Below, one piece after another: positions 3,540 to 33,900 of a DNA stretch of 64,000 nucleotides; positions within the stretch are counted from its first letter, which is position 1; each line of letters starts with the position of its first letter. Under the pieces are notes generated by a model. It had not been told where the DNA came from. It saw only the letters and a program-made list of their open reading frames with translations, and searched no databases. Both the position numbers and the translations under genes were made by a program. Origin of the DNA: a virus; the IMG/VR virus record IMGVR_UViG_3300012953_000013, positions 96,001 to 160,000 of that record, one strand, 5' to 3'.

Positions 3540-4277
3540 ATGAACATGGGAAAAATAGAAAATTTATTTGCATTTGATTTTGATGATACTCTAGCTGTAA
3601 CCCCGAGCGTTATTGGGGTGCAAAGAGTTAACGAGTACGGAAAATCAGATCCAGAATTTAGAAATTGGATTATTGACAACAATCTAGATATTCTAGACAT
3701 TGATAGAGAAGATACAGAATCTGAAGTTATTTGGTTCTCTTCTGGAGATTTTGCAAAATACGAAAAAGCGCATCATTCAGACTTGGAGTACTTGGATTCT
3801 AATAAACTCAAAGACCTTTATGATTTTACTAAAACAGCGTCTGTAGACGTGCAAGGTTCTTCTCCAATCACTCCAGTCTTAGATATTTTAAAACAGGCTA
3901 GCTCTAGGGCAGACTCCATGGTTGTTATTATAACTGCGAGAAGTGGAAATGAACCAATGTCTGGTCTTGGTGGGAACAATGTTCAACCGACTAACCAAGA
4001 AGACATCCAGGATTTTCTTGATTTACAGGGAATCTCTCTAGACTTTGGAAATATAACGACTGCAGGAGACATTGGGCAAGGCCCTCAAGCAAAAGTTAAA
4101 GCTATGCAGTCTTATATCGACACTTACAACCCAAAAACAATATATTTTTATGATGATAATATGGGAAATGTAAATGCTATAGCTGGAATGTGCGCAGATT
4201 ATTTTCCTGGAATTAATATAAAAACATTTACTGTTGGTGAAGGCGGACAGGTTTCATTTCACGGCGAGTGCAGTTAA
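3540..4277 (+). CDS. HAD-superfamily phosphatase (polynucleotide 3'-phosphatase-like)
   Basis: Motif I FAFDFDDTL, motif II IITARS, motif IV YFYDDN; ATATTTA at 3522-3528 upstream. Confidence 0.75.
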   Translation: MNMGKIENLFAFDFDDTLAVTPSVIGVQRVNEYGKSDPEFRNWIIDNNLDILDIDREDTESEVIWFSSGDFAKYEKAHHSDLEYLDSNKLKDLYDFTKTASVDVQGSSPITPVLDILKQASSRADSMVVIITARSGNEPMSGLGGNNVQPTNQEDIQDFLDLQGISLDFGNITTAGDIGQGPQAKVKAMQSYIDTYNPKTIYFYDDNMGNVNAIAGMCADYFPGINIKTFTVGEGGQVSFHGECS

Positions 4278-6813: not shown

Positions 6814-7629
6814 TTACACTCCAATTGTTTGGTGGTTGGGGCTCCAGTGAGTAGATCTTCCATCAGGAGTAGTCTCTTTTTTCACTTCATTTCCGTCTTC
6901 ATCAATTTTTCTATTATATACTAAAAACCTAGAAGAGTATTGGCCAGCATTTCCATCTAAATCTCTATAAGAAGAAATTGTAGCTCCACCTGATTTATAA
7001 CTTTCTCTCAGTATTATTTTTATTGAGTTGTTGAGACTTTCAAGATTTCTATCTGACAAATCTTTTACATTAGCGTGAGGATTAATTCTTGATAGCCACA
7101 AAGAATCTGCTTTAACATAATTTCCAACTCCACATATAACTGATTGGTCCATCACGGCTTTGCATATGTTATGCTTATTTTTCTTTCTCAGCCTCTCAAT
7201 AAATTTTTCTGCTGAGACATCTTCTGAAAGCATATCTGGGCCGAGAGATTGCAGTTTTTCAATAAGCTGATGTTTTCCTCTAACAAATTTTAGAGTTCCA
7301 AAATTTCTCTGATCTCTATAATATAGATAGTCTCCATTGGAAAAACTAAACCTAACCCTATTGTGAGGGTGCTCTTCAGTAACCCAAGAACCCGTCATCC
7401 CCAAAGTATTCCAAATAGAAAACTCTTTATTTAATATCCAGTAGATGAATTTACCGTGTACTCCAACGCCGGCAACTTTTGCAGGAAGTTCTTCTTTAAA
7501 AGAATCTATACCGCTTGGAAGCTTTTTTGTATATCTTCCAGACAGAATCTCGACATTAGTCATTTTTTTATTCGAAACAAATTTTGCTAAACTCTCAGCA
7601 ATTCTTTTGCACTCTGGTCCTTCTGGCAT
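6814..7629 (-). CDS. Fpg/Nei family DNA glycosylase/AP lyase without a Cys zinc finger
   Basis: N-terminal MPEGPE (catalytic Pro2/Glu3), HGKF, LGMTG, DQRNFG, H2TH GVGNYVKADSL, C-terminal DGRSTHWSP with no CxxC pairs. Confidence 0.92.
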   Translation of the reverse strand: MPEGPECKRIAESLAKFVSNKKMTNVEILSGRYTKKLPSGIDSFKEELPAKVAGVGVHGKFIYWILNKEFSIWNTLGMTGSWVTEEHPHNRVRFSFSNGDYLYYRDQRNFGTLKFVRGKHQLIEKLQSLGPDMLSEDVSAEKFIERLRKKNKHNICKAVMDQSVICGVGNYVKADSLWLSRINPHANVKDLSDRNLESLNNSIKIILRESYKSGGATISSYRDLDGNAGQYSSRFLVYNRKIDEDGNEVKKETTPDGRSTHWSPNHQTIGV

Positions 7630-7652: not shown

Positions 7653-7681
7653 ATTTTAATAATATAGGAAGAATTGTTCAT
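7653..7681 (-). promoter_or_regulatory. early-type promoter for fpg/nei
   Basis: ATGAAC-N17-TAAAAT; SD AGGAG before ATG 7629. Confidence 0.55.
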
Positions 7682-8339
7682 GAAAAGAGTAATCATATCA
7701 GACCTTCACATTGGGAGCAAATTTTATAACTCAAAAGAACTACTTGAATTTCTAAACTCTGAGCATTATGATGAGCTTATTTTAGCCGGAGACATAATAG
7801 ATTTCATAAAAATACCGATTTTTACTAAAAGGTGTTTGGATATAGCTAAATCAATAGACTATTCCAAAAAAATAATTTATATCGTTGGAAATCATGATGA
7901 GGGGCTAATAAATTTAGTTGGTCAAAAAATAGGCAACGTTGAATTTATGAAAAGATATGAGTTTGAGTCTTTTGGAAGAAAATTTAGAATAGAGCATGGA
8001 GACGAATATGATAGAGGAGTTTTGCATAACAGGGTTTTTGTAAAATTTCTATCAGTAATCCAAAATATTTTAGAGTTTGCTTTTGATTTTGATTTTACCA
8101 GCTGGTGGACAGAGAAGCAAATCAAAAAACATAAACTAAGAAGTGCTATTCACATAATAAAGCACAATCCAGACGTTGATGTTTTTATTATGGGACATAA
8201 TCATTTTCCAGAAGCAATAATATGGGTCGATGAAGACCAGAATATAAAAACATACATCAATGCTGGAGACTGGGTTACACACCAAACTTATGTCACAATA
8301 GAGGGTGGTGTCGCTAGATTAAGAAAGTTTGATTCTTAA
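7680..8339 (+). CDS. calcineurin-like metallophosphoesterase, LpxH/UDP-2,3-diacylglucosamine hydrolase-like
   Basis: ISDLHIG, AGDIID, VGNHD, EHGDEYD, MGHNH, NAGDW motifs; ATG 7680 preferred over TTG 7674. Confidence 0.8.
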   Translation: MKRVIISDLHIGSKFYNSKELLEFLNSEHYDELILAGDIIDFIKIPIFTKRCLDIAKSIDYSKKIIYIVGNHDEGLINLVGQKIGNVEFMKRYEFESFGRKFRIEHGDEYDRGVLHNRVFVKFLSVIQNILEFAFDFDFTSWWTEKQIKKHKLRSAIHIIKHNPDVDVFIMGHNHFPEAIIWVDEDQNIKTYINAGDWVTHQTYVTIEGGVARLRKFDS

Positions 8340-8764
8340 ATTTCTTGGTAAGTCCCAAAAACCTTATCAATGAAAGGATATGTTCCAGAAAAATTAGACT
8401 TTACTTTTCCAAGGTGGTGGCTCATATGATGATTAGCAGCTTTTGTATCCGCCCCTGTATGAGCTCTTCGATGTCGATAAGCATATAAAGCAAAGAAGCT
8501 TATTAACCCAATTGAAAATGCTGGTGCTAAAATAAAAACGCCAATAGCGAAACTCCAGACAGCTAAATTAGCCCACCACGGAAAAAAGAAAGCGCCCGGA
8601 TCTTCCGGACGTTGATGATGTCTCGTATGAATAGCTTTCCACTGCTTAAGCACTGGGTATTTGCCAAGCGGTCCGTGAAAAATATAGCGATGAAAAAAAT
8701 AAAACATGTAAGCGCCAAATAAATGGCCAAGAACTGCTAGCAATAAACTGAGTGCTAAGTCCAC
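8336..8764 (-). CDS. fatty acid hydroxylase/sterol desaturase superfamily membrane di-iron enzyme
   Basis: His boxes HRYIFH, HTRHH, HRRAH, HHMSHH; terminal NFSGTYPFIDKVFGT; hydrophobic helices. Confidence 0.82.
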   Translation of the reverse strand: MDLALSLLLAVLGHLFGAYMFYFFHRYIFHGPLGKYPVLKQWKAIHTRHHQRPEDPGAFFFPWWANLAVWSFAIGVFILAPAFSIGLISFFALYAYRHRRAHTGADTKAANHHMSHHLGKVKSNFSGTYPFIDKVFGTYQEI

Positions 8765-8778
8765 AATAGTCTCCCGAT

Positions 8779-9219
8779 CTAAATAGATTCTCCTTTGACC
8801 CTTAGGTCCACTAAATAACTATAATAATAATTTAAAGCGTGATCTGTCGGGGTCACATTTTCCCAATCACCTTTACAAAAAATATGCCAAGCATCATCTG
8901 CATACTTTCCGCAGCCATATAAGTCTTTGGCAGTTTTCCAGTCAGCGCTAAGATAATCTTTCGAAAATTTCATTAAAGTTTTTGCTCTCTTATTAGAAAG
9001 ACCAAGTGGTTTCAAAATATCTCTTAAGTCTTCTTCATCAGCTAAAACCATAAAATCTGGCTCTGGATACTTTTTAAAAAGTGTTGGAAGAATTTTTCTA
9101 ACCTGCTTATGAGTTGTTAGATTCAATAAAATACAGCAAACGAGTATCTTCCACTCATCTCCAAAGTATGGCTCTTGGACAAGATTCATTGGAGACTGTG
9201 GTGGATTCCAGTTTTGCAT
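8779..9219 (-). CDS. MBD4-like HhH DNA glycosylase (G:T/G:U mismatch)
   Basis: WNPPQSPMNLVQE, WKILVCCILLNLT, LKPLGL..KRAKTL, HhH LYGCGKYADD, PTDHALNYY; likely start is ATG 9219. Confidence 0.85.
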   Translation of the reverse strand: MQNWNPPQSPMNLVQEPYFGDEWKILVCCILLNLTTHKQVRKILPTLFKKYPEPDFMVLADEEDLRDILKPLGLSNKRAKTLMKFSKDYLSADWKTAKDLYGCGKYADDAWHIFCKGDWENVTPTDHALNYYYSYLVDLRVKGESI

Positions 9220-9251: not shown

Positions 9252-9914
9252 TCAAAGTTTTTCAAACTTATATCCAAATGTCTCTATTTCCCAAGCACAA
9301 ATTCTTTCAATATACTCACTAGTTTCGTAGTCATAATTTTTCAAATAGTCTTTTCCAAAACCATGCTTATTCTTATGAAATACTTTGTTAAAAGAGTGGT
9401 CTAAATTGAGTTCTTCACAAGCCCTGTTTAAATCTTCTTTCATATATTCCATTCTACCAACAAAGTCTACCAATATATTTCCGTCTAAATCTGAAATGTA
9501 AGTAAGTGCAGACAAGGGGTTTCTTTTTCCAGCAGTAGGACAATCTATTAAATGATTACAAACTTTTCTAGATTCCAGCAACCATTTTTTAAAATCTTTA
9601 ATTTTGTGGCACTTTTGCCTTTCAAGCGACCATTTCCATTGACAGAACGCTCTTTGCCACGGGTTTCTAACCCATGCAATTTTATGCCAATCTTCCCAAA
9701 TATCTTTGCCAACTTTATTTTTCACATATAAAGCAGTCGCGTGCTTTTGATACCTGTGGATTTTTATTTTATAGAAATGATTATAAGCAGTTGATCCGCC
9801 AGCTTTTGGAATATGGATAAAGACGCCTTTTGCGTCTTTTGGAATGCCGCGGTCTTCCATGGTGTGCTTAGCTATGGTAAGATTGCCAGTTTTTTTATTT
9901 CGTCTTCTTGGCAA
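9252..9914 (-). CDS. sulfotransferase family protein
   Basis: 5'-PSB FIHIPKAGGST, 3'-PB WVRNPWQR, DFVGRME; TTG start with SD AAGGAGGT. Confidence 0.85.
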   Translation of the reverse strand: MPRRRNKKTGNLTIAKHTMEDRGIPKDAKGVFIHIPKAGGSTAYNHFYKIKIHRYQKHATALYVKNKVGKDIWEDWHKIAWVRNPWQRAFCQWKWSLERQKCHKIKDFKKWLLESRKVCNHLIDCPTAGKRNPLSALTYISDLDGNILVDFVGRMEYMKEDLNRACEELNLDHSFNKVFHKNKHGFGKDYLKNYDYETSEYIERICAWEIETFGYKFEKL

Positions 9915-10951: not shown

Positions 10952-11178
10952 AATCTACTCTCAGCAGATTCCCATATTAGCGTCCACCACTCTCTATACA
11001 TTGATTTCATGTCTGACCAAAAAGTGCCGACAAATATACCAAATAAAAAATAAGGAAAAATTGTCGGCAAGCCGAAAAATTCTGTGGCTGTTTCTAGGAA
11101 AAAATAGAAAAAAGTAAAAGCAAATAGCGGAATCAAAGCAACTAAAAAAGCAAAAAAAGTAACTAAAAAATTCCTCAT
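10948..11178 (-). CDS. small two-TM membrane protein (holin candidate)
   Basis: Two hydrophobic Phe-rich helices and a charged C-terminus. Confidence 0.55.
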   Translation of the reverse strand: MRNFLVTFFAFLVALIPLFAFTFFYFFLETATEFFGLPTIFPYFLFGIFVGTFWSDMKSMYREWWTLIWESAESRL

Positions 11179-11888
11179 CAGCTTCTTCTTGTTTCTTGAT
11201 ATGCTTTAACTGTTACCGGCCAAAGATTCGCCGCCATGTCCAAGCAGGCTTCTGCGACTTTTTGGATTTCCCATTGTGCTCCCACATGCGTTCGTAAGTC
11301 AACGAACTTGAGCAAATTATTAAGATTGGTAGTTCCATAATATTCCGTATACATGTTTTGAGGTAGTACACCTCGAGCTTGTTCTCTACAGACACCCATT
11401 TTAATAAGGTTTTCATATAAGTTAAGAGAATTATTATTATGTTCTTTAATTACAGTAGAAGCTGTTTTTCCGTATTCAGTATCGCTTAAGTCTGGAATTA
11501 TTACAGGGTCAATTAGATTATCTACGTTCGAAGCTTGTCGATTACTTTTATGCTGAGTTCTAAAAGAGTCCGGCTGGTAAAACTTGATATCGATATCAGT
11601 GTACCTCCTAGAGATCTCATTGTAGGACCAAGTGCGATGACGATGGTGCTGGCTACGCACAAAAATAGGAACACAAAAACGAAAGGTAACCAGGTTGTGT
11701 TCAAGTGTACTAGTATGTCTGTGTTCAATAAGGTATCTGATAAGCTTTTCATCTCTCTCGTCCATAGTCATTTTTTGCTTACCGAAAGAAACTCTCGCGC
11801 TGTTAACTACGCTTAGGTCAGAACCCATATGCTCAACGTACTCAACTGCGCCTATTCCGTCACCATAAAGCTCAATTCTTTTATTCAT
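11178..11888 (-). CDS. thyX: flavin-dependent thymidylate synthase
   Basis: SARVSF, HTSTLEH, RHRTWSYNEISRRY (ThyX motif), EQARGVLP, AQWEI; ATGA overlap with the endolysin stop. Confidence 0.96.
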   Translation of the reverse strand: MNKRIELYGDGIGAVEYVEHMGSDLSVVNSARVSFGKQKMTMDERDEKLIRYLIEHRHTSTLEHNLVTFRFCVPIFVRSQHHRHRTWSYNEISRRYTDIDIKFYQPDSFRTQHKSNRQASNVDNLIDPVIIPDLSDTEYGKTASTVIKEHNNNSLNLYENLIKMGVCREQARGVLPQNMYTEYYGTTNLNNLLKFVDLRTHVGAQWEIQKVAEACLDMAANLWPVTVKAYQETRRS

Positions 11889-12793
11889 TTGTCCACACAA
11901 TATAATGGGTTATTTTTTAAATCTTTAAGCATTTCTTCGATGTCTAATCCTGCACAATCAATTTTTCTTTTAGTTAAGTGAAAATGAGAACAAAAACCCT
12001 TAAATTTATTGGATTGGCAGTCTGGATCGACAGCCCATTTAGTAGAAGGTGCTTCTAGTGGTATGCCAAGCCCCTCATGACATGCCATCCACAGGGCTTT
12101 CAGAGCTTCTTTCTGAATTGGATAAAAATCCATAAATGGATCCATTGATTTGCCATGACAAGTGGCATCAGATATTAACGGTCTTTCTCCGAAACCATTT
12201 CTAGCATACCAATTCTGATACTTTGGATAATAAGCATTAGCTATTTCAACTCCAACTGAAGAATGATTCCATTTTGATCCTCCGGCATGCCAAGCCCCGT
12301 CATTCATGTCCATTAATTGATAAATAGTCCCATCATTATCAATACAGAAATGAACTGATATGTTTCTCTTGTTTAAGACTTTTACGCATGAATCGCTAGA
12401 GAGGCAAACGTCCCAATGGTTAACAAAAAACTTTATATTTCTCTTTTTTCCAGCATAAGAGTTTCTTCCACCAGTTAAAACAAGAGCTTCAGAATCTAAA
12501 TGTGTAACTACTTTATCCCAGTTAATTGGGATTGGCTGACCCCTATAATAGATACATTCACTAGAAATCTTAATTTGATATTTTTTAATATCGGTTAAAG
12601 ACTGTCTCTCAGTGTTAATTCTTCTATAAGTTGTTGGGCCACACATCCCATCAGCAGAAAGACCGTGAGCCTTCTGAAATTCTTTTATAGCCCTGGTTAA
12701 TTTCTTGTCAAAATCTCTGTGACCCGGAATAAACCAATCCGGTTCCCACTCCAACTTTACTGCAGAAGCTTCATTATAAAACTCTTTATCCAT
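11885..12793 (-). CDS. endolysin: peptidoglycan-binding domain plus N-acetylmuramoyl-L-alanine amidase
   Basis: AIKEFQKAHGLSADGMCGPTT (PGBD); NHWD, SVHF, WHAGG, SVGVEI, HFHL..KIDC (Amidase_2). Confidence 0.88.
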   Translation of the reverse strand: MDKEFYNEASAVKLEWEPDWFIPGHRDFDKKLTRAIKEFQKAHGLSADGMCGPTTYRRINTERQSLTDIKKYQIKISSECIYYRGQPIPINWDKVVTHLDSEALVLTGGRNSYAGKKRNIKFFVNHWDVCLSSDSCVKVLNKRNISVHFCIDNDGTIYQLMDMNDGAWHAGGSKWNHSSVGVEIANAYYPKYQNWYARNGFGERPLISDATCHGKSMDPFMDFYPIQKEALKALWMACHEGLGIPLEAPSTKWAVDPDCQSNKFKGFCSHFHLTKRKIDCAGLDIEEMLKDLKNNPLYCVDK

Positions 12794-17680: not shown

Positions 17681-18634
17681 TTAGTTAAAAACTGACCTTG
17701 CGGTCATGAAAAATTTATCTGCATCAAAAACCCGGATGCCTTCTCTAATCATTATTCTCATAAAGCTAATCTTATCTAACTTGCGCTCAATAGTATCGAT
17801 TTTAAAATTTATTTTTTCAATTTGACTAGCAGATAGGTTGGCGATATCTAGATACATAAGCTTCCAGTTCATTAGCGGGATTCCACTATCAGCCACTATT
17901 TGGTGATAAATTTTCACCTTTGAGTCTTCAGACCGCTGGTGGCTGATCTTAATTATCTCTTCAACGCTAACAAATTCTTCTCCCGTTATTTCTGGAAAAC
18001 GTTTACACAGTGTGCGAAAACCCGCACCTTTTATACCTGGAAGACCGTCAGAACCATCTCCGCAAAAACATCTAGCAACGCAAAAGTTTTCTGGATATAT
18101 CCCAAATCTTTCCCTAACAGACTCTGTTGTCAATATTTTCTTTTGGCCAGGTGACCAAATTTTTACTCGATTTTTTTCTAAAAGTTGATAGTAGTCTTTA
18201 TCAGAAGAGACAATGGTTATATTTTCATTTTTAAGCTTGTACTTTGCTAAATAACCAATCACGTCATCTGCTTCGCAATCAGAAACATATATCTGAGGGA
18301 TCCCAGAAAGACCCAGCAGTTTAGTTGTTAAGTTAATCTGATAATTCCTATTGTTAACTGTATCAGGGATATCAGATTCATAAAATCTATTTAGCTTAAC
18401 AGGTCGCCGGCCCCTCTTGTAATTCTTGAATATATTTCTTCTTCTCAGCGAACCGCCGCCTTCCCAAATGACATATATTTTTTCTGGATGAAGATTATCT
18501 ATTAAAAGCTGAATGCCTTTTAGAAAGCCTATTGCACCGCCTATATGTTCACCATTATCGCTAGTAGAAGGGTTAGCTGCAAAATGCCTCATAAAAAAAT
18601 TGAGTGCATCGATTAATATGATTCCAGAAGTCAA
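17681..18634 (-). CDS. 5'-3' exonuclease/flap endonuclease (PolI N-domain / T4 RNase H-like)
   Basis: LIDALN, NYKRGR, CEADDVIG, SSDKDYYQL, GDGSDGLPGIKG. Confidence 0.92.
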   Translation of the reverse strand: MTSGIILIDALNFFMRHFAANPSTSDNGEHIGGAIGFLKGIQLLIDNLHPEKIYVIWEGGGSLRRRNIFKNYKRGRRPVKLNRFYESDIPDTVNNRNYQINLTTKLLGLSGIPQIYVSDCEADDVIGYLAKYKLKNENITIVSSDKDYYQLLEKNRVKIWSPGQKKILTTESVRERFGIYPENFCVARCFCGDGSDGLPGIKGAGFRTLCKRFPEITGEEFVSVEEIIKISHQRSEDSKVKIYHQIVADSGIPLMNWKLMYLDIANLSASQIEKINFKIDTIERKLDKISFMRIMIREGIRVFDADKFFMTARSVFN

Positions 18635-22671: not shown

Positions 22672-23859
22672 TTAACTTAAAATCTGGAAATCAAGCGGAA
22701 ATTCGCCTAATCCTTCAATAAATATGCTTGAAGATATATTCTTGAAATCTTCTATGTCATCAGGGTGAATATCTACTAACATTGCATCATGAATAAAAAA
22801 TATTGGCCTCACTCTAGAGGGTGCTTTGTCTAAAATTTGTCCAAACCCTAAAAGTGCAACATCAACTCCAGTTGATTGAATGTAATTGTTATATAATAAG
22901 GAATCGCGCGCGGAAGAGGGTTTGATTGGCCGACCAAAAAAATTCTTAATCCTTCCAGTAGATTCATAATTTTTCTTTTGTTCTCTTACAACCATATCGT
23001 AGTTTAATATGCTCTTAGTTTTTTCTACTAGGCGTTTGATATTAACCCCTTCTGGCAAACCCTTTTTTAAAGTTGACTCTGAAGCTCCATAAACTGCGCA
23101 TAAAACCAACTTTTTCACTGCAGATCTAGAAACTGGTTTATCAAAAAGTTTTGAGCCTAATGATTCATAGATATCAGAGCCCAAATCCTTATCTGTTAAA
23201 AGCATAGCTGTTCTTGGTTCATGAGAAACAAAATCAACTTGGGCTATTTTTCCTCCAGGATAAGAAGACTTAAAGTATTTTCTTATAAGTTTTGGAGCTG
23301 TTAAAATTTGAGGCCCTTCTGTAATCGTCATTCTCCCAGTAAGAGTTTTAGTGACGCTATACTTGGGAAGCGATAAAAAATTGTCTCTTGAATTTGAAAT
23401 AAAGCCCTTAGCTACTGAAACATTTTTAATTTTTCCAGTCTTAATTCCCCTATTGATCGAATTACCGTCTGTCTGAGCTCTCTGAACCCTCTTGAGGGTT
23501 CTGTTACATTCCATAAAGGTATCCAAATAACCAGATTCTTGAATACACTCGAGGGCTATTCTGGATTGTTTGAAGGCTTCTTTAATTTCTTCTATCATTT
23601 TTTCTGGAGACTGAACTCCATCTATTGGTATGCTTGCTAGATCAGCACCCAAAATTTCGAATGTTTTCAATATTTTTGTAGAAATCAACTGAGGTTTTTC
23701 AAGAGACAAGAGTTCAAAAACTGGATCAATAGAACGGCAAGCATTAGAGTCTCCTAGACAATAGCTTTCTTCGTCAGATTCTCCCCATGAAAAACCGGTT
23801 CCAGAGCTGGTAAGAGACTTCTGTTTTAAAAATCTATTCTTGGGTATAGTAATCTTCAT
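22672..23859 (-). CDS. minimal family A DNA polymerase (palm/fingers, no exonuclease domains)
   Basis: TGRM, motif A VDFVSHEPR, motif B RSAVKKLVLCAVYG, NNYIQSTGVD, motif C IHDA. Confidence 0.82.
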   Translation of the reverse strand: MKITIPKNRFLKQKSLTSSGTGFSWGESDEESYCLGDSNACRSIDPVFELLSLEKPQLISTKILKTFEILGADLASIPIDGVQSPEKMIEEIKEAFKQSRIALECIQESGYLDTFMECNRTLKRVQRAQTDGNSINRGIKTGKIKNVSVAKGFISNSRDNFLSLPKYSVTKTLTGRMTITEGPQILTAPKLIRKYFKSSYPGGKIAQVDFVSHEPRTAMLLTDKDLGSDIYESLGSKLFDKPVSRSAVKKLVLCAVYGASESTLKKGLPEGVNIKRLVEKTKSILNYDMVVREQKKNYESTGRIKNFFGRPIKPSSARDSLLYNNYIQSTGVDVALLGFGQILDKAPSRVRPIFFIHDAMLVDIHPDDIEDFKNISSSIFIEGLGEFPLDFQILS

Positions 23860-23865
23860 AGAAGA

Positions 23866-23894
23866 ACTATATCAAAGTATTTGAATGTTTTCAA
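23866..23894 (-). promoter_or_regulatory. early-type promoter, likely leaderless transcript
   Basis: TTGAAA-N17-TATAGT only 6 nt before ATG 23859; no SD. Confidence 0.6.
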
Positions 23895-26893
23895 GAATCT
23901 GATGAAGTATTTGAAGTAGCTGCTGAAATTATAGCTTGAGCTCTTTCTGTTTGTGTTAGCATCGATTCATATTTACCAAAAGCATCAATTGGTATGAGCT
24001 TAAATTTGGTCATAAATTTTCCAGGTTCTATAGAGTGATCTAAACCTGAAATAGCATACACATTATCAACAGTAGTTCCAGTACCCATATCAATAAAAAA
24101 TTGTTGTCCATGATTTAAAATTGGGCATCCAAAGGATTCGCCACTTGCTTGCATGGGCATCATTCTTAAAGGAAGACCGCGATCTTGCTCTCCTGGAGTT
24201 CCGGAATCAGAAGTACTTCCACGCTGAGCTCGAAGCATGTGAATTGTGGTATCAGCAGAATTATGCATGGAGCCAACTGAGAGAGACGTTAATCCACAGT
24301 TTTGAGACCCATAAGTTATAGATGGCATATTAGACTTAATATAGTGTTTGAGAGCTGGAGAACCGCCTTTTATTCGATAAAAATCTGTTCCATCAATCGC
24401 CTCAAGAATTCCAGACTCTTTAAGCTTATTTTCAAATGTTGATCCTATTTCTGCCCAGTTAGAATCTTCTGAATTTTCATCTGCTGCTACTTGAGTTGCT
24501 GCAGCTCTGACAGCGCCCATCTCAGTATTTCTTAATGCTCCAAGAATATCGTGCAATCCCGAATACTTTGCTGCTGAGTCATCGAAAAAATGGAGTCTTA
24601 AAATAGTATCTTGAGGTCCAAAAGCATCTTCATCAGAAGTTTTTGCTTTTTTATGCGGAACACACTCGGGAATCATTCTAACTCGAGGCAACTTAAATGC
24701 AGTAGCCATCCCAGAACCTTGATAGGCTCTTTCTAAAACTCTATCTTTACCACTAGAAAGTTCACTAACATTATCTTCATTTGCAATTACTGCTTTTCCA
24801 TCTTCATCTCTAGTGAATAGGTTATTAAAGCCATAAGCTTTGCAAGCCATACTACTTAAAAAATACCTATTGACAAAACCCATGAAACTAGCAACGGAAA
24901 TCTGGACTTTCTCTTTTTGCCACTCTTCAAAAAGCTTTGGAAAACCCGTGTTTCCATTCATTTCTATTGGAAAACTAGCAATATTTTGGTTATACATGTA
25001 AGAAGCTTTATCGTTAAATGTATAGAATATCAATTGAACTTCATTAAACCTTTTAGTTTCCATCAGGGGAGCGCCTATAAACAAACTGGCCAACCTTCCA
25101 AAAGAGCACCAATTAGAATTATCTTTTACTCTTGATGGATGGTTAGGAATTCTAGAAGAAGTTGACGTTTTAGATTCTCCCCTTGGTTTTAAAAATGGAT
25201 CTCCCTGAGATTTTGCTATTCTTAATTTTCTTGTGATAGTTCCTGCAATTGTTGTCTGAATCTCGCTTGTAGAATCCACTGCAGCTTGAAGAGAGTCTGC
25301 AAGAGCTTCTGTATCTCCACCAGCATTATTAGCGCTTCTCATAAAAGCCTGAATTTCTTCAAATTTTTCACCAGAAAACATTGCGCCAGCATTTGTTGGG
25401 CTTAAGTTAGAAATTGTCGACATTCCAGTGACGTCTGCCATCTCTGGGCTGTCTCCCAAGACGCTTCTTCGCAATAAATTAATTGACTCTATTAAAGCTT
25501 CAAGGGCCTGATATTTTGTTGTTGCTTCTGGCGAAACTCCAACATCAGTAACATTTATTGAGCTGGCTCCTTTAGATACGCAGCTTAAAGAAATCTCTAC
25601 TTGACCATCATCTTTAAAAGTATATTTTGAGTTGTATACTCCGAATTTCTCTTTTACCCTCAGAGCATTAATAAACATACCATAAGGATTATTAATATTC
25701 CCATTGTTTCCAGGGGCGTCTGGATGGCTCCAGCCATACTCTATGAGAAGCTCTGTTTGACCAAAAGATGATGGTTTAACAAAAGCACCAATTTCGCCAA
25801 GCCTAGACCTATCATGAAGTACCAGCTTGATCTCTGCTGATTTGTGAGCCATCATTCCACGAGTAGGGGTAATTTTTATGCTTAATGAAGTCATTGTCAT
25901 AAAAGGGCGCATTTTATCTAAAACGGGCGCGCCTCTTGGTGAACCTGCTTGGCCTGGCCAAGGAACTTCTTGACCGCCGGAAGTTCGAGTTCTAGCACTT
26001 GCTTCTGTAAAAGCTGCAACTTCATCATAGCTAGAATAGTTTTCCCAGGAAGGGACTAAAGTTTGCGGTGAAGTGAAGATTTCCATTCCAGCTGAAGAAT
26101 ATTGGGCTGGTACTGCATCTGTGGGAGGAGCTGTACCGGCTGAAGCTGCTGCAGAATTGGCAGCAGCATTTTGGTTTGCTGCTGTCTCAGCAGCTGCAGC
26201 ATCTGCAGAAGCAGCTGCCGCGCTTTTGGCTTGAGCAATTATACTATCTGCTGAATCGACTGTAATTTTTGACATCCCGTTTAAGAATCTTAAATTGCTG
26301 ATTCCAGAATATTTCATATTCGCCCCTTCGCCAGTAACTTGGGGGCCAGGGGTTATAACCTCAACATCTACATAGGGAACAGCTCGAGACCATTCTAGTG
26401 TTGGTATCATATTCATAAATACTTCTACACCGCCAGTATCTCTTTGCCCAAAATTTAGCATAGCAGGAAGTATTTGAACGCAACAAAGACCGGGTTGAGC
26501 TTTGTTCGGAGCAGATGGATTAGATGCGGCACTTCCAATCTGATTGCCAAGCATATCATTCATTGTTATTCCAGAAAGAATACCTGTAGAATCAGACCCA
26601 ACGCCATTAGTCCCTATCATATAAAATGCTTTTTTAAGGGCTGATGAGTCTCCGCCAGCAGCGGCTTCTCCAATTTTTGTCAGTATTTCAGCTAAAAATA
26701 ACCCGCCATCTGTAAGACCTGTAACAACTTCAAAAGCTTTTGCATTCATGCTGAGGCCTGTAGTAGGGTCTTCTCCCTCTACTTGCCCCTCTTCCATTTG
26801 AAGCGCTTTTAAGAAAAAATCGTCTAAACTAGCAGCGTTACCGTATTTCTTGAGTTGCCTAATAGCTAAAGTAATATCATCAAAATTACTCAT
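23891..26893 (-). CDS. large baseplate hub-like protein
   Basis: Position after the LysM/wedge gene; LLIEYGWS and C-terminal VYAISGLDHSIEPGKFMTKFKL resemble gp27/late-control-D hub strands. Confidence 0.6.
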   Translation of the reverse strand: MSNFDDITLAIRQLKKYGNAASLDDFFLKALQMEEGQVEGEDPTTGLSMNAKAFEVVTGLTDGGLFLAEILTKIGEAAAGGDSSALKKAFYMIGTNGVGSDSTGILSGITMNDMLGNQIGSAASNPSAPNKAQPGLCCVQILPAMLNFGQRDTGGVEVFMNMIPTLEWSRAVPYVDVEVITPGPQVTGEGANMKYSGISNLRFLNGMSKITVDSADSIIAQAKSAAAASADAAAAETAANQNAAANSAAASAGTAPPTDAVPAQYSSAGMEIFTSPQTLVPSWENYSSYDEVAAFTEASARTRTSGGQEVPWPGQAGSPRGAPVLDKMRPFMTMTSLSIKITPTRGMMAHKSAEIKLVLHDRSRLGEIGAFVKPSSFGQTELLIEYGWSHPDAPGNNGNINNPYGMFINALRVKEKFGVYNSKYTFKDDGQVEISLSCVSKGASSINVTDVGVSPEATTKYQALEALIESINLLRRSVLGDSPEMADVTGMSTISNLSPTNAGAMFSGEKFEEIQAFMRSANNAGGDTEALADSLQAAVDSTSEIQTTIAGTITRKLRIAKSQGDPFLKPRGESKTSTSSRIPNHPSRVKDNSNWCSFGRLASLFIGAPLMETKRFNEVQLIFYTFNDKASYMYNQNIASFPIEMNGNTGFPKLFEEWQKEKVQISVASFMGFVNRYFLSSMACKAYGFNNLFTRDEDGKAVIANEDNVSELSSGKDRVLERAYQGSGMATAFKLPRVRMIPECVPHKKAKTSDEDAFGPQDTILRLHFFDDSAAKYSGLHDILGALRNTEMGAVRAAATQVAADENSEDSNWAEIGSTFENKLKESGILEAIDGTDFYRIKGGSPALKHYIKSNMPSITYGSQNCGLTSLSVGSMHNSADTTIHMLRAQRGSTSDSGTPGEQDRGLPLRMMPMQASGESFGCPILNHGQQFFIDMGTGTTVDNVYAISGLDHSIEPGKFMTKFKLIPIDAFGKYESMLTQTERAQAIISAATSNTSSDS

Positions 26894-27201: not shown

Positions 27202-30200
27202 TTATGCTCCCTCGGGTTTTGGATCGTCTTCTTCTTCTGGAGGTGGAGGTAGTAATTTAGCCAACGCCTCAGTCAACATTGCTTTCGTATTTGTTTCTGC
27301 TGTCAAAGAATGTCCAGAACCAAATAGACCTCTAACAATTCCACCAACATTATATGCTGGGGCTCGAATTGCTCCGTCGTAATCTAGACCAAGTGGAATA
27401 TCGTGAATTGGAGAGAATCCCATTGTTACTTTTACATAAGTCGGCGCCCTTCTTCCGGGAGTTTCATCCCAAGGGGCTAAATTCCAATCAAAATCAAGCT
27501 GGGTTATTGCTCCAGCAATACCCTTACCACCAGATTCATGAAAAGCACGAACTATGCTGTTTCCAGATATATCTCCCTCTTTAGTTCCGAAAAAGTCTTT
27601 GAGTCCATCTGCTGTAAAAAGAGTCGGTTCTGGTGGATCTGCAAACGGGTTAGGCAAGCCACCAGCACTAGCTGCTGAACCAAGAGTATTATTAATAGCG
27701 TCTAAAGCGGCTTGTTCATGATCTAAGATTAAATCCATATCTCCGCAAATAACACATTGGTTAGCGGGATCTTTTAAGCCTTTAACTAAAGGTCCAGCCT
27801 CGTCTAAAACCACAGCATATCTTACTCTAGCTTTTTCTTTTACTCTCGTTTTTGTGTTATCTGAAGCATTTTCTGTTCCCCCACCAGATACATCAACAAC
27901 TGGCCTGATAACAAAGCCAGCAACCTTACCTTTTCTATCAGCTTCTTGACTGGCTGGAACTTTAAGCTTTCCAAAAAATGCTTCTTTAAAATTAACTGTA
28001 GTTACATCTAATTTACAAATCTTGTATCTTGAAGGTTTTATTATCACTGTTGAACCGACTGCAAAACCTTTAGATACTCCGGGTATCATTGGAAGGCCTG
28101 CAGCAACTGCTATATTAGCTGCTATGGCTTCTTCATATGGGGGCGGGCCATTTTGAGCTTCTGCATGGAGGTTCTCCATATAGTCCATAACATTTTTAAT
28201 TTTCCCGTCCATGTCTTCTTGCTTATCAACTCCAATATCTTTATACGGAGCTTTACTATCTATTGTGAAACTTGAACTTCCAAGACCGAAAAGCCTAGAT
28301 AAACTTTGGATTGAATAGTTGCTTGACCAAAGTTCTCCAACTCTTAAGCGAATTATTGGAGAAGCAGTTGGAACTTGAGAGAATGGCATTATAAACGTGT
28401 TCTTTCCATCTGCAGATTTCTTCATTGTGCCTTTAGACCAAGATGGATATACCATAGCAACTAATCTATTGATTGCGAAATACATTTCATCCATATCTTC
28501 TGGTCCTGTAGCCACCATAAAGAAGCTCAACCCCATAGACCTCTTAGTCTTCTTATAGATCATGACGTCGTCCATCCTACCAAATCCGCCCATATTACTC
28601 CATTCAGGAGCAAAACTATCGGTAAAACTGTCTATAAAAGTGTGCATTGCTAAAATTTCATTAGTTCTAAGATCGTGAAAATAAAATGGTATGTAATAAG
28701 CATTTAGCTCATCTTCAAACTGCTGCCTTTCATCTGCAGTATATCTGCCGCCAAGAGGTCTTGCTGGAACATCATCGCTAGCAGATTGGGGAGATCCTTC
28801 ATCTTTTGGAGCAATTCCACCAAATTTCTGGGTTTTTTCTCCTAGTCTTCCAACACCTTTCGGCATTTTGCCAGCAACTCCAAAAGCTTCATTGAAACCC
28901 ATTGCAGCATTTGCGCCCAATACGTTTGGTGGCAACAAATATCTACTCGGAGTAGAACCAAATCTCCAAGCCAACCTATAGTCTGGATCTTTACCCATTA
29001 AAGTCCTAGATTTAATATGAAGATTTGCAATTCCAGGAGCTAATCTGTCTGGTTGTCCTTGGGCGCTTGTATATGGTGAAAATTCCATAGCTCCACCACT
29101 AAAACCACCGGACAATAATACTATATCCCCTAAAGAAGCAAGAGTGTTTAAAAACTGGAATGTTGTCGAGGTTGCAAAAGCGTCTAAGACAACAAAGACA
29201 CTCTCTAATCCTCCAACAATGTTACTAAAATCTGCTTCAGCAATTGAGTTTGAAATTTGTTCTAAATCTCTAATTGCAGCCCTAGAAACAATGATAAAAT
29301 ACCCTGATGAAATTACGTCTATGATTCTAAAGTAAAACTGTAAAATTCCATAAAACATAGCTGCTAAAAAGCTTTTTCCAGAACGCAATATTGGCATTCT
29401 TAAAAGTTTCATCAGCCATTTCCCAATAGTCAGATCACCGAAATCAGGTTGGCCTGCAGCAGCACCCATTGGAAGGGGCTCGGGAGTCTCTTCCACTTGG
29501 CCTGGTGGGAACATTAAGAAAATTAAGCTGATTATAGCCGCTAAAATTATTCCAGCAACTAAAACTGCTACAGCTGCTATAACCGCTAAAACGATCATCC
29601 CAGTGGGTAGAGGTCCGTCGAAAGGTTCTAAATAACTGTTTAGTTGCCCATAAGATTTTGCATTTTTAGCGTCAAGCCCTTCGGTATTAGCGCCTTTTCT
29701 TCTAATTCCATCCTGCTTTAAATCAGTATTGGGGTTTCCGGGGTGGTCGCCAAATGGATTTCCATGAGCGTTTTCAGTCCTAAGTGAAGATCGACTAACT
29801 TTCGCAAGTTGAAGCTGCACATCTATTCCTTGACCTATTGCATTTGTTTGATCTGCGCTGTCTGGATTAGCATCTGAATCACTTGCGCCAGCGGCTGAAA
29901 GCATCAATGAAAATCCTACTTTGGCCAACTCTTCAAAAGCTGCACCTTCAGCATCTTCATTGTATCTTCCCATGGTTTTCTGGATGCTGAACATACCGTC
30001 TGAATATTCTTTATCTTGGATGTATGGGGACTCTGTACCAGGTGAAAACCTGTTATATTTTAAAACATCTGAAACTTTTTTGCGAAGATCAACGCCTGGA
30101 TCAGATGCATTTTCTACCGTTTCATAAACACCACTCCAAACATCACCCACAACTTTGCCTAAAAGTTCATGTCCGTCAGTTTGGCTGCTTTTGTCTAAAA

Positions 30201-30567
30201 AGTCAGTTAAGGGGCCAATAGTACCGCCACCTTCGGCGTCTGGAGTAGAACCATCAGTAATAGTCGCATAATATGATTTTGCTACTTGCTGAACTCCGGC
30301 CATAAAACCATCAGGCATAACCCCATCGACAGCTATATCGATTAGTTCTGGAGTCCCTAAAACTAAAGGGTCATCCGGCGTTGTTTTTTCAACAGGAGCA
30401 GTTGGGTGGTATTGGTTTGTTTCTGTAGACGATAGCATCCACTGTCCCAAAGTCTCCATAGAGGAGTCTTTGAGATCTGACGTCTCAAATGCAACTGGTT
30501 CAGCCGGAGCTTCTTCAGCGGCTGGATCAGATGTTGGCGTAAAATCGCTATCTTTAACTTCAGACAC
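27202..30567 (-). CDS. large baseplate/tube-initiator-like protein with hydrophobic segments
   Basis: TFIDSFTDSFAPEWSNMGGFGRMDDVMIYKKTKRSMGLSF resembles gp48/gp54-type tube initiators; lies between TMP and LysM genes; GTG start with SD GAGG. Confidence 0.55.
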   Translation of the reverse strand: MSEVKDSDFTPTSDPAAEEAPAEPVAFETSDLKDSSMETLGQWMLSSTETNQYHPTAPVEKTTPDDPLVLGTPELIDIAVDGVMPDGFMAGVQQVAKSYYATITDGSTPDAEGGGTIGPLTDFLDKSSQTDGHELLGKVVGDVWSGVYETVENASDPGVDLRKKVSDVLKYNRFSPGTESPYIQDKEYSDGMFSIQKTMGRYNEDAEGAAFEELAKVGFSLMLSAAGASDSDANPDSADQTNAIGQGIDVQLQLAKVSRSSLRTENAHGNPFGDHPGNPNTDLKQDGIRRKGANTEGLDAKNAKSYGQLNSYLEPFDGPLPTGMIVLAVIAAVAVLVAGIILAAIISLIFLMFPPGQVEETPEPLPMGAAAGQPDFGDLTIGKWLMKLLRMPILRSGKSFLAAMFYGILQFYFRIIDVISSGYFIIVSRAAIRDLEQISNSIAEADFSNIVGGLESVFVVLDAFATSTTFQFLNTLASLGDIVLLSGGFSGGAMEFSPYTSAQGQPDRLAPGIANLHIKSRTLMGKDPDYRLAWRFGSTPSRYLLPPNVLGANAAMGFNEAFGVAGKMPKGVGRLGEKTQKFGGIAPKDEGSPQSASDDVPARPLGGRYTADERQQFEDELNAYYIPFYFHDLRTNEILAMHTFIDSFTDSFAPEWSNMGGFGRMDDVMIYKKTKRSMGLSFFMVATGPEDMDEMYFAINRLVAMVYPSWSKGTMKKSADGKNTFIMPFSQVPTASPIIRLRVGELWSSNYSIQSLSRLFGLGSSSFTIDSKAPYKDIGVDKQEDMDGKIKNVMDYMENLHAEAQNGPPPYEEAIAANIAVAAGLPMIPGVSKGFAVGSTVIIKPSRYKICKLDVTTVNFKEAFFGKLKVPASQEADRKGKVAGFVIRPVVDVSGGGTENASDNTKTRVKEKARVRYAVVLDEAGPLVKGLKDPANQCVICGDMDLILDHEQAALDAINNTLGSAASAGGLPNPFADPPEPTLFTADGLKDFFGTKEGDISGNSIVRAFHESGGKGIAGAITQLDFDWNLAPWDETPGRRAPTYVKVTMGFSPIHDIPLGLDYDGAIRAPAYNVGGIVRGLFGSGHSLTAETNTKAMLTEALAKLLPPPPEEEDDPKPEGA

Positions 30568-30904: not shown

Positions 30905-33900
30905 TTAAGCTGTTGAGCCTCCAAGTGATGAAACTCGAGAACTTGACCCTCTCAATACTAAATCACTCTCAATTAGTGGTGTAGCAACATCCATAGCCTT
31001 CATCGTGACATTTAAGCTCATGTTAATAGTAACATTACCATCCGCAATTGTAATATTATCTCGCTTAACTCTAAGGCTTTCGTTAACTTGCTCTAGAACA
31101 GCATCGATATTTAATGGTGTTATATTTGAGAGTCTTGCTGCTTGATCGTTGTATGCTTGAACAATATCTGCAATATGTTTTACGCCTTCTCCAACGGCGA
31201 CCTGATCAAAATCCATAATACCGGATTCTGCAATATCGGCTGCCATATCAGTAAAGCCTTTAGACATCCTTCCAAGATCTCTAGCGCTGTTAATCCAACT
31301 AGTAGCCATTTCCGGATTAATTGTAAATCCTCCTGAAGCAGCTAAAGTAGCAGCGGTATTAGCCCAAACATCTAAGCCAATGATATCGGCAACATGATTA
31401 ACCATTTGAACAATTGCTGTGCTGGCAGCTCCGCCACCTTCAGAAAAATCTTCATTAAGAGCTGATTGGTTTTCTTCCCACGCTTTTAAGATTTTTCCAA
31501 TGCCATTAATCATATCTCCAAACGCTTTGGCTTTTTCTCCCATTCCTTCTGGCATCGCCCGAAGACCACGGACCATTGATCGTACCAATCTTGGAATAGT
31601 TGGCCCAATTCTATCAAGAAGCGTTGTCATCGCGCCGACGACAGCGTTAATTTTTTCATCTACACCCTCACCGGTGACTGCACCGACAATTGAGTCCATT
31701 GCCCCATGATTTTCTACGACTGCTGTAATTGGTCCCGACATAGCTGAAGCTAAGTTTGCAACTCCACCAACCATGCCCGCAATAGCTTCAGCACCCTTAA
31801 GCGCTTTTTCATCCATTTTACCAGCCATGCCCACCAGAAGCTCGATCATTCGAGTCATAGTATCGCCAACAGCTTCAATGAACCTAACAGACATATTAAC
31901 CATATCATCCATGCTGGTATCACCAAATACTTCGCTGGCTACACCAACCATTGCCATGTCTAGTCCAAGGCCACCAATAGCTGCAGTGGCTTCTATTACT
32001 TTACCAACAATGTCTACAATTTGTGCAGTTCTTTCAGGATCGGCGACAGGCACCCTCATTACAGCATCAATAACTCTGCCAACATCATCAAACGCCGTTG
32101 ATGCAAAGTCTGCTGCAGCAGAAATTCCTTCTTGGATAAACCTTACTACTGGCATAAACAGCCTGAATGCCGCGCCAAGAACTGCGAGACCTGCAACTGA
32201 AGAGAGTGCTCCCTTCATTACATCAATAGCACGCTCGATTTTGTCCATTCCGCCAGGCATTGCATCGAAAATCTTGACCATTCTGGCTAGGGCTGTTGCA
32301 AATGTACCTGCAGCTGCAACTAATAAATCAGCCCCGGCTTCTAGGCCCGGAACTGCTGCAAGGAGAACTGGAATTGCAAGAGTAAGGGCAGCTCCACCGA
32401 TAGCGAGCCCTGCAATCGCTAAGAAAGTTAATCCCATTGTTCCGAGAATTCCAATAACTCTCATGAGATCCATTCCGTCAAATACCTTAACCACTTCTCT
32501 CAACGCTAGTGCAAACACGCCTCCTGCCACATACAAGAAGGCTGCACCTGCTAGCATACCTAGAGCACCAAGACCAAGGGTTATACCACCATCGGCAATC
32601 ATAGCGGCGCCGCCAAGAGCAGCACCCCAAACTGCAAGTGCTGATAAGCCTATCATCGCGAGGAGCTCTACAACTCTCAGAAAATCTATCCCTGCGAGGA
32701 CTTTATCAATTACCATGATGGCAACCGCAAACAATCCGCCCGCTATACCCAAGAATGCTGCAGCGGCAACCATTCCTAAACCGCCACGGATCATATCTGC
32801 TTCTTTGATCTGCTTAGCCATTTTAGAAAGCACCCAAGCAGCTCCAATAGCAGCGCCCATAGCTAAGAACGCTTTTCCAATATCTTCCCAAGCAATCGGG
32901 CTTAAGATAACTGCTGCTGTAGCGATGGCAATAGCCATAATAACAACAGTTCCGCCAATAAATGCAGCGACTTTCAATCCAGTTATAATAGCTTTGTTTA
33001 CATTACCTTCGTCAATGTCAGCGATATCGTTAATCGCGCCTGAAAGCCTTTCAGTAAAACTCTTTTTCGGAAGAGCGTTTTCATCGGATGCATTTTTTGT
33101 GTCTTCAGCCATTTTAACGCCTAGCCAAGAAAGAATTTTAGCTTTAAGGTATTCCATTGCAACAGCTTTAGCTAAAGCAACTGTAAACTGCAGTGCTAAC
33201 CAACCGGCCATGGCCGTTAATACTATGGCAACCTTACCCTTATGGGCCCACATTACTTGGCCCAAAGCTTTTGTTAGTTCCCAAATAAGCGTCGGCAAGG
33301 CATCCATGAGAGCGCCAAAAGCGTCGCCGAAAGCTCCCATAAGAGCTCCGCCAATCGTTGTTCTATCTCCGCCGCCTCCACCAGCACCTGAAAGAGCGTC
33401 TGCTAAACCGCGAATCATCTCAACAAGTTTTTCAGTAACCCAGGGTATCATTCCTGTGATAATACCACCAAAAGCATTAATCATGTTGACAGCACCCTCT
33501 TTCATCTTGTCGACAAAGGTGCCTGTTCTGCTTAAGTGGTCATCAAAGATTCCCATAAGGCTGTCCATCAAAGTTTGAACAGCAGCTGCTGGATCTGTAG
33601 CTAATTGGCCGAAAAACGTCCTAAAAACTTCTGTGACTTGGCTCATCGTGGTTCGCCACTCGCCTGGATCGAAAAATCCAGCAAGTCCCTCTAAAAAGTC
33701 TTTGACTCCCGGGAACATTTCAACGAACATTTTGCCAACTTCTTTACCGGCTTTGTGGACTTCTCGAAGCATTCCATAAAAATTCCGAGCCAAAGCAAGG
33801 AATTCTTTTGAGTTCATAATGCCATCAACAACGCCCTGGAAGAATGCACTAAATGGGCCGCCCATATTTTCTTTGCCACCACCTAGAGCTTCATGGACTT

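Follow-up and report, generated by a model that had tools for sequence, protein, structure and literature searches.

The DNA stretch analysed here, hereafter the window, comprises 64,000 nucleotides (bases 96001–160000) of the 184,866-bp IMG/VR virus record IMGVR_UViG_3300012953_000013, which is ca. 71% complete according to CheckV. At positions 8779–9219, it encodes a stand-alone DNA glycosylase that almost surely belongs to the MBD4-type glycosylase domain family. We consider with moderate confidence that this protein is a monofunctional mismatch glycosylase that passes its product to a Nei-family lyase and is needed because the phage DNA carries cytosine modified at C5. An initial annotation, made by a model from the sequence letters, had described the gene as a phage-encoded MBD4-like mismatch glycosylase. 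The domain assignment was borne out by sequence (E = 7.6e-39), by fold and by active-site residues, and the phage origin by genes for a tail sheath, a major head protein and a portal in the same window. Given these structural genes and the replication gene set (DnaE-type polymerase, DnaB helicase, UvsX/RecA-like recombinase and single-stranded DNA-binding protein), the genome is that of an uncultured marine tailed jumbo myophage. The window further encodes a ribonucleotide reductase, ThyX, ClpP, a 5′–3′ exonuclease and a family-A polymerase domain. IMG/VR contains at least 598 proteins related to the head protein, and the lineage is therefore abundant in marine samples.

The interval 8779–9219 is an open frame on the minus strand only. 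Translation from the ATG at 9219 gives 146 aa, and all five peptides quoted in the initial annotation, which gave no strand, occur in this translation. Initiation at a TTG at 9255 instead would lengthen the protein by 12 residues to 158 aa, matching the database gene call; the 146-aa form was favoured because homologs begin at the position of the ATG. In a phmmer search of PDB sequences, the glycosylase domains of human and mouse MBD4 were the top fifteen distinct sequences (E = 7.6e-39 to 1e-37), after which the matches fell to MIG (1kea, E = 2.8e-5) and EndoIII (E of ca. 0.01). Residues 2–138 aligned without gaps with residues 13–149 of 4dk9, and the identity with the mammalian MBD4/MED1 glycosylase domain (1NGN, 4DK9, 4E9E, 4EVV, 4EW0, 6VJW) was 43%–46% over ca. 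137 ungapped residues. Judged from these alignments, the similarity to MBD4 is far above chance. Pfam returned the generic HhH-GPD domain alone (1.4e-8), NCBIfam gave a sub-threshold match to nth (40 bits vs. a cut-off of 211.7), and no PHROGs family matched. The comparison of a predicted structure with MBD4, proposed in the initial annotation, agreed with the sequence matches. An AlphaFold2 model built with 18 homologs as input (mean predicted local distance difference test score, 95.1) superposed on the mammalian domain with a template modelling (TM) score of 0.93 and a root-mean-square deviation (rmsd) of ca. 1.1 Å. Foldseek placed 16 MBD4 entries first (TM 0.88–0.93, rmsd 1.0–1.3 Å), and the next fold was MIG (TM 0.62).

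As in the mammalian domain, and as the initial annotation had pointed out, there is no iron–sulphur loop. The chain ends 20 residues past the catalytic Asp126 and therefore has no room for a Cys-X6-Cys-X2-Cys-X5-Cys cluster loop, and no [4Fe-4S] cluster motif was found in the 146-aa translation. MIG (the thermostable thymine-DNA glycosylase, 1KEA), EndoIII and MutY share the HhH-GPD superfamily fold, and MIG likewise removes T and U opposite G; however, these enzymes are ca. 220 aa long, carry a [4Fe-4S] loop and resemble the phage protein only weakly. Nth, in turn, has a catalytic HhH Lys, whereas the phage protein has Tyr106 in its place. Unlike mammalian MBD4, the phage protein stands alone without a linker. 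The methyl-CpG-binding domain is absent, as the glycosylase domain spans the 146-aa protein from end to end, and the protein is therefore not a full-length MBD4. On all tested features except the Arg468 plug discussed below, it is an MBD4-type domain.

To compare active sites, 434 was added to each residue number of the phage protein to obtain that of human MBD4. This offset reproduces the pocket identities at 447–449 and 560–562 as well as Leu466, Arg468, Gly471, Leu506 and Tyr540 listed for the human enzyme (PMC3479182). Asp126 aligns with Asp560, the catalytic residue of MBD4 (PMC3479182), in line with the match at the catalytic Asp noted initially, and is invariant in 120/120 marine homologs and 143/143 long homologs. 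The pyrimidine pocket of MBD4 is formed by Gln449, which is essential for activity of the human enzyme, Tyr540, Leu466 and Val448, the backbone of which touches the flipped base (PMC3479182). It is matched by Gln15, Tyr106, Leu32 and Val14, respectively, and Gln449, Leu466 and Tyr540 are each kept in all 120 marine homologs. Leu72 and Leu74 correspond to Leu506, which reads the opposite G through its backbone (PMC3479182), and to Leu508. Tyr106 occupies the place of the lyase Lys of bifunctional HhH enzymes, as does the Tyr of mammalian MBD4. Since monofunctional members of the HhH superfamily lack this Lys (PMC8307549), the phage enzyme should be monofunctional.

A likely partner for cleaving the abasic site left by the glycosylase is a zincless Fpg/Nei-family protein encoded in the same window (Table 1). 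Its N-terminus reads MPEGPE, and it lacks the C-terminal cysteines of a Cys4 finger. Among 81 related loci, a Nei homolog was present in 46, in 29 of which it lay directly downstream of the glycosylase gene on the same strand, abutting or overlapping it. At one locus (L082:9992–11233, plus strand), the glycosylase and Nei occupy a single frame of 414 codons in which MPEGPE is kept internally. Because the chemistry of Nei needs a free N-terminal proline, this frame probably reflects a lost stop codon with internal initiation rather than a working fusion. The best PDB entries for the Nei protein of the window were 3a45 and 3a46 (E = 2e-40), deposited as ‘Formamidopyrimidine-DNA glycosylase’, which we take to be Mimivirus Nei1. 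On this identification, Nei is the second repair enzyme of this phage whose best solved relative is non-bacterial.

Genes for the modification of cytosine were also found in the record. The initial annotation had proposed a search of the genome for C5-methyltransferases, and this search recovered a C5 cytosine DNA methyltransferase, plus a cytosine-specific ThyA homolog ca. 9 kb from the glycosylase. The best solved relatives of the ThyA homolog were MilA CMP 5-hydroxymethylase (7.7e-30) and T4 dCMP hydroxymethylase (2e-20), with true thymidylate synthases ranking behind (1e-15). In alignments, the Asp of its motif GFCNDVFTF is shared with MilA and with the Xp12 dCMP methylase homolog. This position corresponds to Asn177 in Escherichia coli thymidylate synthase and Asp179 in T4 dCMP hydroxymethylase, the residue that determines specificity for cytosine rather than uracil. 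ThyX can supply dTMP, so that the ThyA homolog is left free for a cytosine-directed role; it probably makes 5-methyl- or 5-hydroxymethyl-dCMP. Its identity to the Xp12 methylase is only 24%, and a search of the record, which is 71% complete, gave no DHFR. The lack of a DHFR and the resemblance to hydroxymethylases point to 5-hydroxymethylcytosine (5hmC) rather than 5-methylcytosine (5mC), although they are not decisive. The ThyA homolog is flanked by a DUF6378 gene (L003:1044–1328, minus strand) and a dUTPase gene (L003:188–628, minus strand), and the C5 methyltransferase gene adjoins a sulfotransferase-family gene and a gene for an NAD-dependent sugar epimerase/dehydratase. The record also contains two genes of the dCMP-deaminase family.

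Related genomes carry the glycosylase and the ThyA homolog together in many cases. The ThyA homolog was present in 26 of 44 larger glycosylase-bearing records, or in 7 of 10 when the records were at least 50% complete, and all 18 distinct ThyA-homolog sequences carry the Asp. By comparison, when 13 records of the same lineage were chosen by the head protein alone, the glycosylase occurred in three and a ThyA-family gene in none. These counts are descriptive and carry no statistical test, as most of the records are fragments, the records are related to one another and the genes are spaced 4–9 kb apart.

Independent phage lineages agree with a link to modified cytosine. In GenBank phages, full-length relatives (41%–44% identity) were confined to Xp12 and related phages (YB23, MET13-T1, Ep029, FMYAK-P1, DoCa6, AXL_1 and Donnerlittchen), and all 13 full-length carriers fell among the 75 records with an Xp12-type methylase. 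Xp12 DNA is fully substituted with 5mC, and its ThyA homolog makes 5-methyl-dCMP (bioRxiv 10.1101/2024.12.05.627091). In Xp12, AXL_1 and Donnerlittchen, the glycosylase homolog lies immediately upstream of genes for a pyrophosphohydrolase (HAD), the dCMP methylase (ThyA homolog), dCMP deaminase and DHFR. These proteins (QNN97216.1 and AXL1_65, and that of Donnerlittchen) are likewise stand-alone phage members of the family that keep Gln449, Tyr540 and Asp560, have Leu at 468 and are encoded with a cytosine-specific ThyA homolog. GenBank names them ‘hypothetical protein’, ‘ENDO3c domain-containing protein’ (AXL1_65) or ‘endonuclease III’ (Donnerlittchen). In contrast to the phage studied here, the Xp12 group consists of small siphoviruses of soil and plant bacteria, its glycosylases form a distant clade, and the gene heads a 5mC nucleotide cluster. 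It has no Nei gene next to it. The cyanophage S-TIM54 encodes a distant glycosylase homolog and also a ThyA homolog with the Asp.

We infer that the phage DNA carries C5-modified cytosine, introduced by the cytosine-specific ThyA homolog, the C5 DNA methyltransferase or both. Deamination converts 5mC, C and 5hmC into T, U and 5-hydroxymethyl-U (5hmU), respectively. The glycosylase would flip out T, U or 5hmU opposite G, a substrate range like that of MBD4 that we regard as likely, and cleave the glycosidic bond using Asp126. The resulting abasic site would pass to the zincless Nei lyase, and the remaining steps would fall to enzymes of the phage or the host; the 5′–3′ exonuclease and the family-A polymerase of the phage could complete the repair. 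The phage would most likely need such an enzyme because the deamination products of modified cytosine escape ordinary uracil-DNA glycosylase (UDG). The same logic of a dedicated enzyme for T:G mismatches is known from Vsr, which in very-short-patch repair corrects the T:G mismatches arising from deaminated 5mC made by a C5 methyltransferase. However, Vsr is an unrelated endonuclease rather than a glycosylase and is limited to particular sequence contexts.

Several observations weigh against this explanation. The Nei gene is not adjacent to the glycosylase gene in the window but lies 1149 bp away, beyond two unrelated genes. These two, encoding a metallophosphoesterase and a His-box hydroxylase arranged tail to tail, intervene between the repair genes in no other phage of the set; because the glycosylase and Nei genes abut in 29 related loci, the split looks like an insertion into the module. 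A complete relative (G022; 284 kb, 100% complete) has the glycosylase and Nei without a ThyA-family gene or a C5 methyltransferase, and two large contigs hold the ThyA homolog without the glycosylase, so that strict co-occurrence of the two genes was rejected in both directions. Hundreds of T4-type 5hmC phages lack the glycosylase, as do many phages of the Xp12 group, including Bosa, DoCa10 and PaMx74. The C5 methyltransferase was found in only 2 of 44 relatives and was thus rejected as a general correlate of the glycosylase; moreover, full substitution by the nucleotide route would leave it nothing to methylate in phage DNA. As most records are fragments, the short distance between the genes inflates their apparent co-occurrence. 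The suggestion in the initial annotation that the phage may carry 5mC therefore stands in part: genes that modify cytosine are present, although their connection with the glycosylase is circumstantial and not obligate.

These observations leave room for a general housekeeping role, which we consider possible but rather unlikely. The glycosylase and Nei would then be a generic base-excision kit of a long-lived, sunlit jumbo phage, in which the glycosylase replaces the missing UDG on U or T opposite G and has no special tie to modified cytosine. Consistent with such a role, the 185-kb record yielded no UDG-family gene, MBD4 itself excises U opposite G (PMC3479182), and the tightest linkage of the glycosylase is with Nei, not with ThyA. 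G022, with glycosylase and Nei alone, and the contigs with a ThyA homolog but no glycosylase also fit it. Against it stands the position of the gene at the head of the 5mC biosynthesis cluster in the Xp12 group. The presence of lineage ThyA homologs in 26 of 44 glycosylase-bearing records vs. none of 13 records chosen by head protein, and the cytosine-specific Asp in every accompanying ThyA homolog, also argue against it, and an MBD4-type enzyme would be an unusual choice for the removal of uracil alone. Overall, a specific tie of the glycosylase to modified cytosine is plausible, with the chances about evenly balanced.

The residues inserted into DNA raise a different question, namely whether the enzyme recognises the same targets as MBD4. 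In MBD4, the Arg468 finger occupies the space vacated by the flipped base (PMC3479182), whereas the phage protein has Leu34 at this position; the Xp12 group and S-TIM54 also have Leu there. In addition, the phage protein has His at Gly471 and Ala at Lys562. The change is clade-wide: position 468 is L, M or Q in all 120 marine homologs, position 471 is R or H in 116 of them, and position 562 is A in 120. Among the 143 long eukaryote-type sequences, by contrast, K or R occurs at 468 in 105, G at 471 in 115, and K or M at 562 in 112. Thus, the match seen initially along the whole 146 aa holds for the ungapped alignment of residues 2–138 but not for the insertion loop. The function of the Arg468 plug may have passed to the basic residue that lies three positions further on in this loop. 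These substitutions count against an MBD4-like role, as the specificity may differ from that of MBD4. The enzyme could act on other targets, such as oxidised pyrimidines, uracils with a 5-substituent opposite A or some base of the host DNA, and so clean up errors of the nucleotide pool rather than repair mismatches with G; the two dCMP-deaminase-family genes could make 5-substituted dUMP. We consider this very unlikely, as the contacts to the flipped pyrimidine (Gln449, Tyr540, the Val448 backbone and Leu466) and Leu506 are invariant, and position 468 varies among eukaryote-type sequences too, some of which have Q, I, V or C there.

An offensive or counter-defence role, in which the glycosylase damages host DNA or undoes a host deaminase (as raised in the initial annotation) or another host defence, appears scarcely credible: glycosylases do serve in phage–host conflict on the host side (bioRxiv 10.1101/2025.10.29.685425), but the neighbours of this gene serve replication, nucleotide metabolism and repair, its partner is a repair lyase, and no defence or anti-defence family was matched.

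In eukaryotes, MBD4 is counted among the factors that protect methylated DNA against mutation, and the initial annotation described the family as known mainly from eukaryotes. This holds for the literature, where our searches gave no report of MBD4-like glycosylases in phages. It does not hold for sequence space, where this “eukaryotic” enzyme has a large branch in marine phages. A word-indexed search returned 282 stand-alone proteins of 135–162 aa from marine metagenomes (Tara, JGI, ENA), up to 83% identical to the glycosylase, some of which the JGI pipeline labels ‘methyl-CpG-binding domain protein 4’. At least 131 viral contigs in IMG/VR encode a relative. In one relative of the gene (G451:C1:29754–30167, the record of L174), on a 140-kb contig of the same lineage, the frame contains one in-frame TAG, which may mark a pseudogene or a sequencing error. 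An exhaustive search of representative sequences gave 2781 matches, including 153 with E-values under 1e-30. The best representative matches were mostly long proteins with the domain at the C-terminus; among ten that were looked up, the named members came from a snake, Tetraselmis, a slime mould, a copepod and a plant. Outside its own marine clade, the closest relatives of the phage protein are eukaryotic MBD4 proteins. The best matches were thus not ordinary bacterial HhH-GPD proteins, an outcome that the initial annotation had named as refuting. The only MBD4-type viral structure in BFVD was U5KBB0 from Clostera anastomosis granulovirus A, a 245-aa ‘HhH-GPD domain-containing protein’ (TM 0.87, 36% identity) that was presumably captured from the insect host.

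A scan of species-representative prokaryote genomes with the single protein gave no match, and motif-based scans of 185,579 such genomes gave one locus, found in the profile scan. This locus lies on NHDW01000006.1 (305,838 bp; our loci L085, L112 and L087), labelled ‘MAG: Methylococcaceae bacterium TMED69’, where MAG denotes a metagenome-assembled genome. Its genes include those for an MBD4-type glycosylase, a ThyA homolog (59% identical) and a head protein that shares 64% identity with that of the phage. In all likelihood, the contig is a jumbo phage genome mis-binned with a bacterium, and the phage head gene on the contig ruled out its glycosylase as a bacterial gene. In a profile search of 400 genomes from the phylum of this MAG, no true family members were found; there were only half matches to Nth-like proteins, which scored 35–39 bits vs. 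168 bits for the phage contig.

Phylogenetic trees, which the initial annotation had proposed, split the whole family from Nth with 100% support when rooted. Within the family, the marine phage clade (support 86–92) was separate from the eukaryote-type clade (90–93), the Xp12 group stood apart, and S-TIM54 was placed on a very long branch. The basal order was not resolved, and the trees therefore do not decide the direction of transfer between phages and eukaryotes. Given that eukaryotes and phages have the family whereas the searched bacterial genomes lacked it, and that the clades are reciprocally separate, the MBD4 glycosylase domain could at root be a phage invention guarding genomes with C5-modified cytosine. 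The eukaryotic enzyme, which protects methylated CpG sites, would then share an exclusive ancestry with the phage clade or derive from it. We regard this as doubtful. With the phage clade at hand, the origin of the eukaryotic domain can be put to the test. Repair of deaminated 5mC would then have co-evolved with viral cytosine modification before or alongside eukaryotic epigenetics.

If the favoured interpretation as an MBD4-type enzyme serving a genome with modified cytosine is correct, some phages that rewrite their cytosines, including the all-5mC Xp12, also carry the matching repair, and the gene could mark phage contigs possibly carrying modified cytosine. The enzyme would be a small, clusterless and CpG-independent glycosylase for T, U and 5hmU opposite G, and thus a potential reagent. 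The clade would furthermore represent a natural experiment on the insertion loop, in which Arg is lost at 468 and a basic residue appears at 471.

Table 1. Glycosylase gene, putative partners and neighbouring genes. Positions refer to the window; those preceded by a handle refer to the record (G000:C1) or to a locus extracted from it.
Feature	Position	Strand	Details
MBD4-type HhH-GPD DNA glycosylase, stand-alone	8779..9219	minus	146 aa from ATG at 9219
Zincless Fpg/Nei-family glycosylase/abasic-site lyase	6814..7629	minus	Pfam Fapy_DNA_glyco and H2TH
Calcineurin-like metallophosphoesterase	7674..8339	plus	Pfam Metallophos 4.8e-11; PHROG metallo-phosphoesterase
Small His-box fatty-acid-hydroxylase-family membrane protein	8336..8764	minus	142 aa; Pfam FA_hydroxylase 6.6e-13
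ThyX flavin-dependent thymidylate synthase	11178..11900	minus	Pfam Thy1 2.4e-47
5′–3′ exonuclease (FEN-like)	17681..18634	minus	Pfam 5_3_exonuc_N 1.8e-29
Family-A DNA polymerase domain protein	22672..23859	minus	Pfam DNA_pol_A 1e-8; PHROG DNA polymerase 6e-21
ThyA-family protein	G000:C1:94881-95759 = L003:1321-2199	minus	292 aa; ca. 240 bp before window base 1
C5 cytosine DNA methyltransferase	G000:C1:85218-86396 = L002:1345-2523	minus	PF00145 5.9e-19

Some of the neighbouring genes might contribute to the same pathway (Table 1). Of the 81 related loci, 21 have ThyX at a distance of 0.4–5 kb upstream of the glycosylase gene. The FEN-like exonuclease is a candidate for a later repair step and the family-A polymerase domain protein for gap filling. 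PHROGs also related the metallophosphoesterase weakly to DNA repair exonuclease, and a repair role for it, such as cleaning of 3′ ends, is pure speculation. The His-box hydroxylase is probably unrelated to the repair module. An open reading frame (ORF) on the plus strand at 3540–4277 was considered as a polynucleotide kinase/phosphatase and left unused, as it had one weak PHROG match (1.2e-5, residues 102–221) and none in Pfam or PDB. This ORF is among the few plus-strand genes, and a 3′-phosphatase, if real, would suit the 3′-phosphate ends left by Nei.

A tRNA scan gave no gene, and the counts from a promoter and terminator scan were not above those in shuffled sequence. A megablast of 25 kb against GenBank phages gave only a trivial match to DnaE. 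A sulfotransferase-like gene on the minus strand (9252–9914; PHROG galactose-3-O-sulfotransferase, 2.8e-8) ends 32 bp upstream of the glycosylase ATG, and a second sulfotransferase-family gene was found at L002:2525–3391 on the minus strand (Pfam Sulfotransfer_2, 2.5e-5). Upstream of the tail genes, two long minus-strand ORFs of 1000 and 1121 aa (23891–26893 and 27202–30567) had no PHROG match, and an ORF of 1507 aa lies at 30905–35428.

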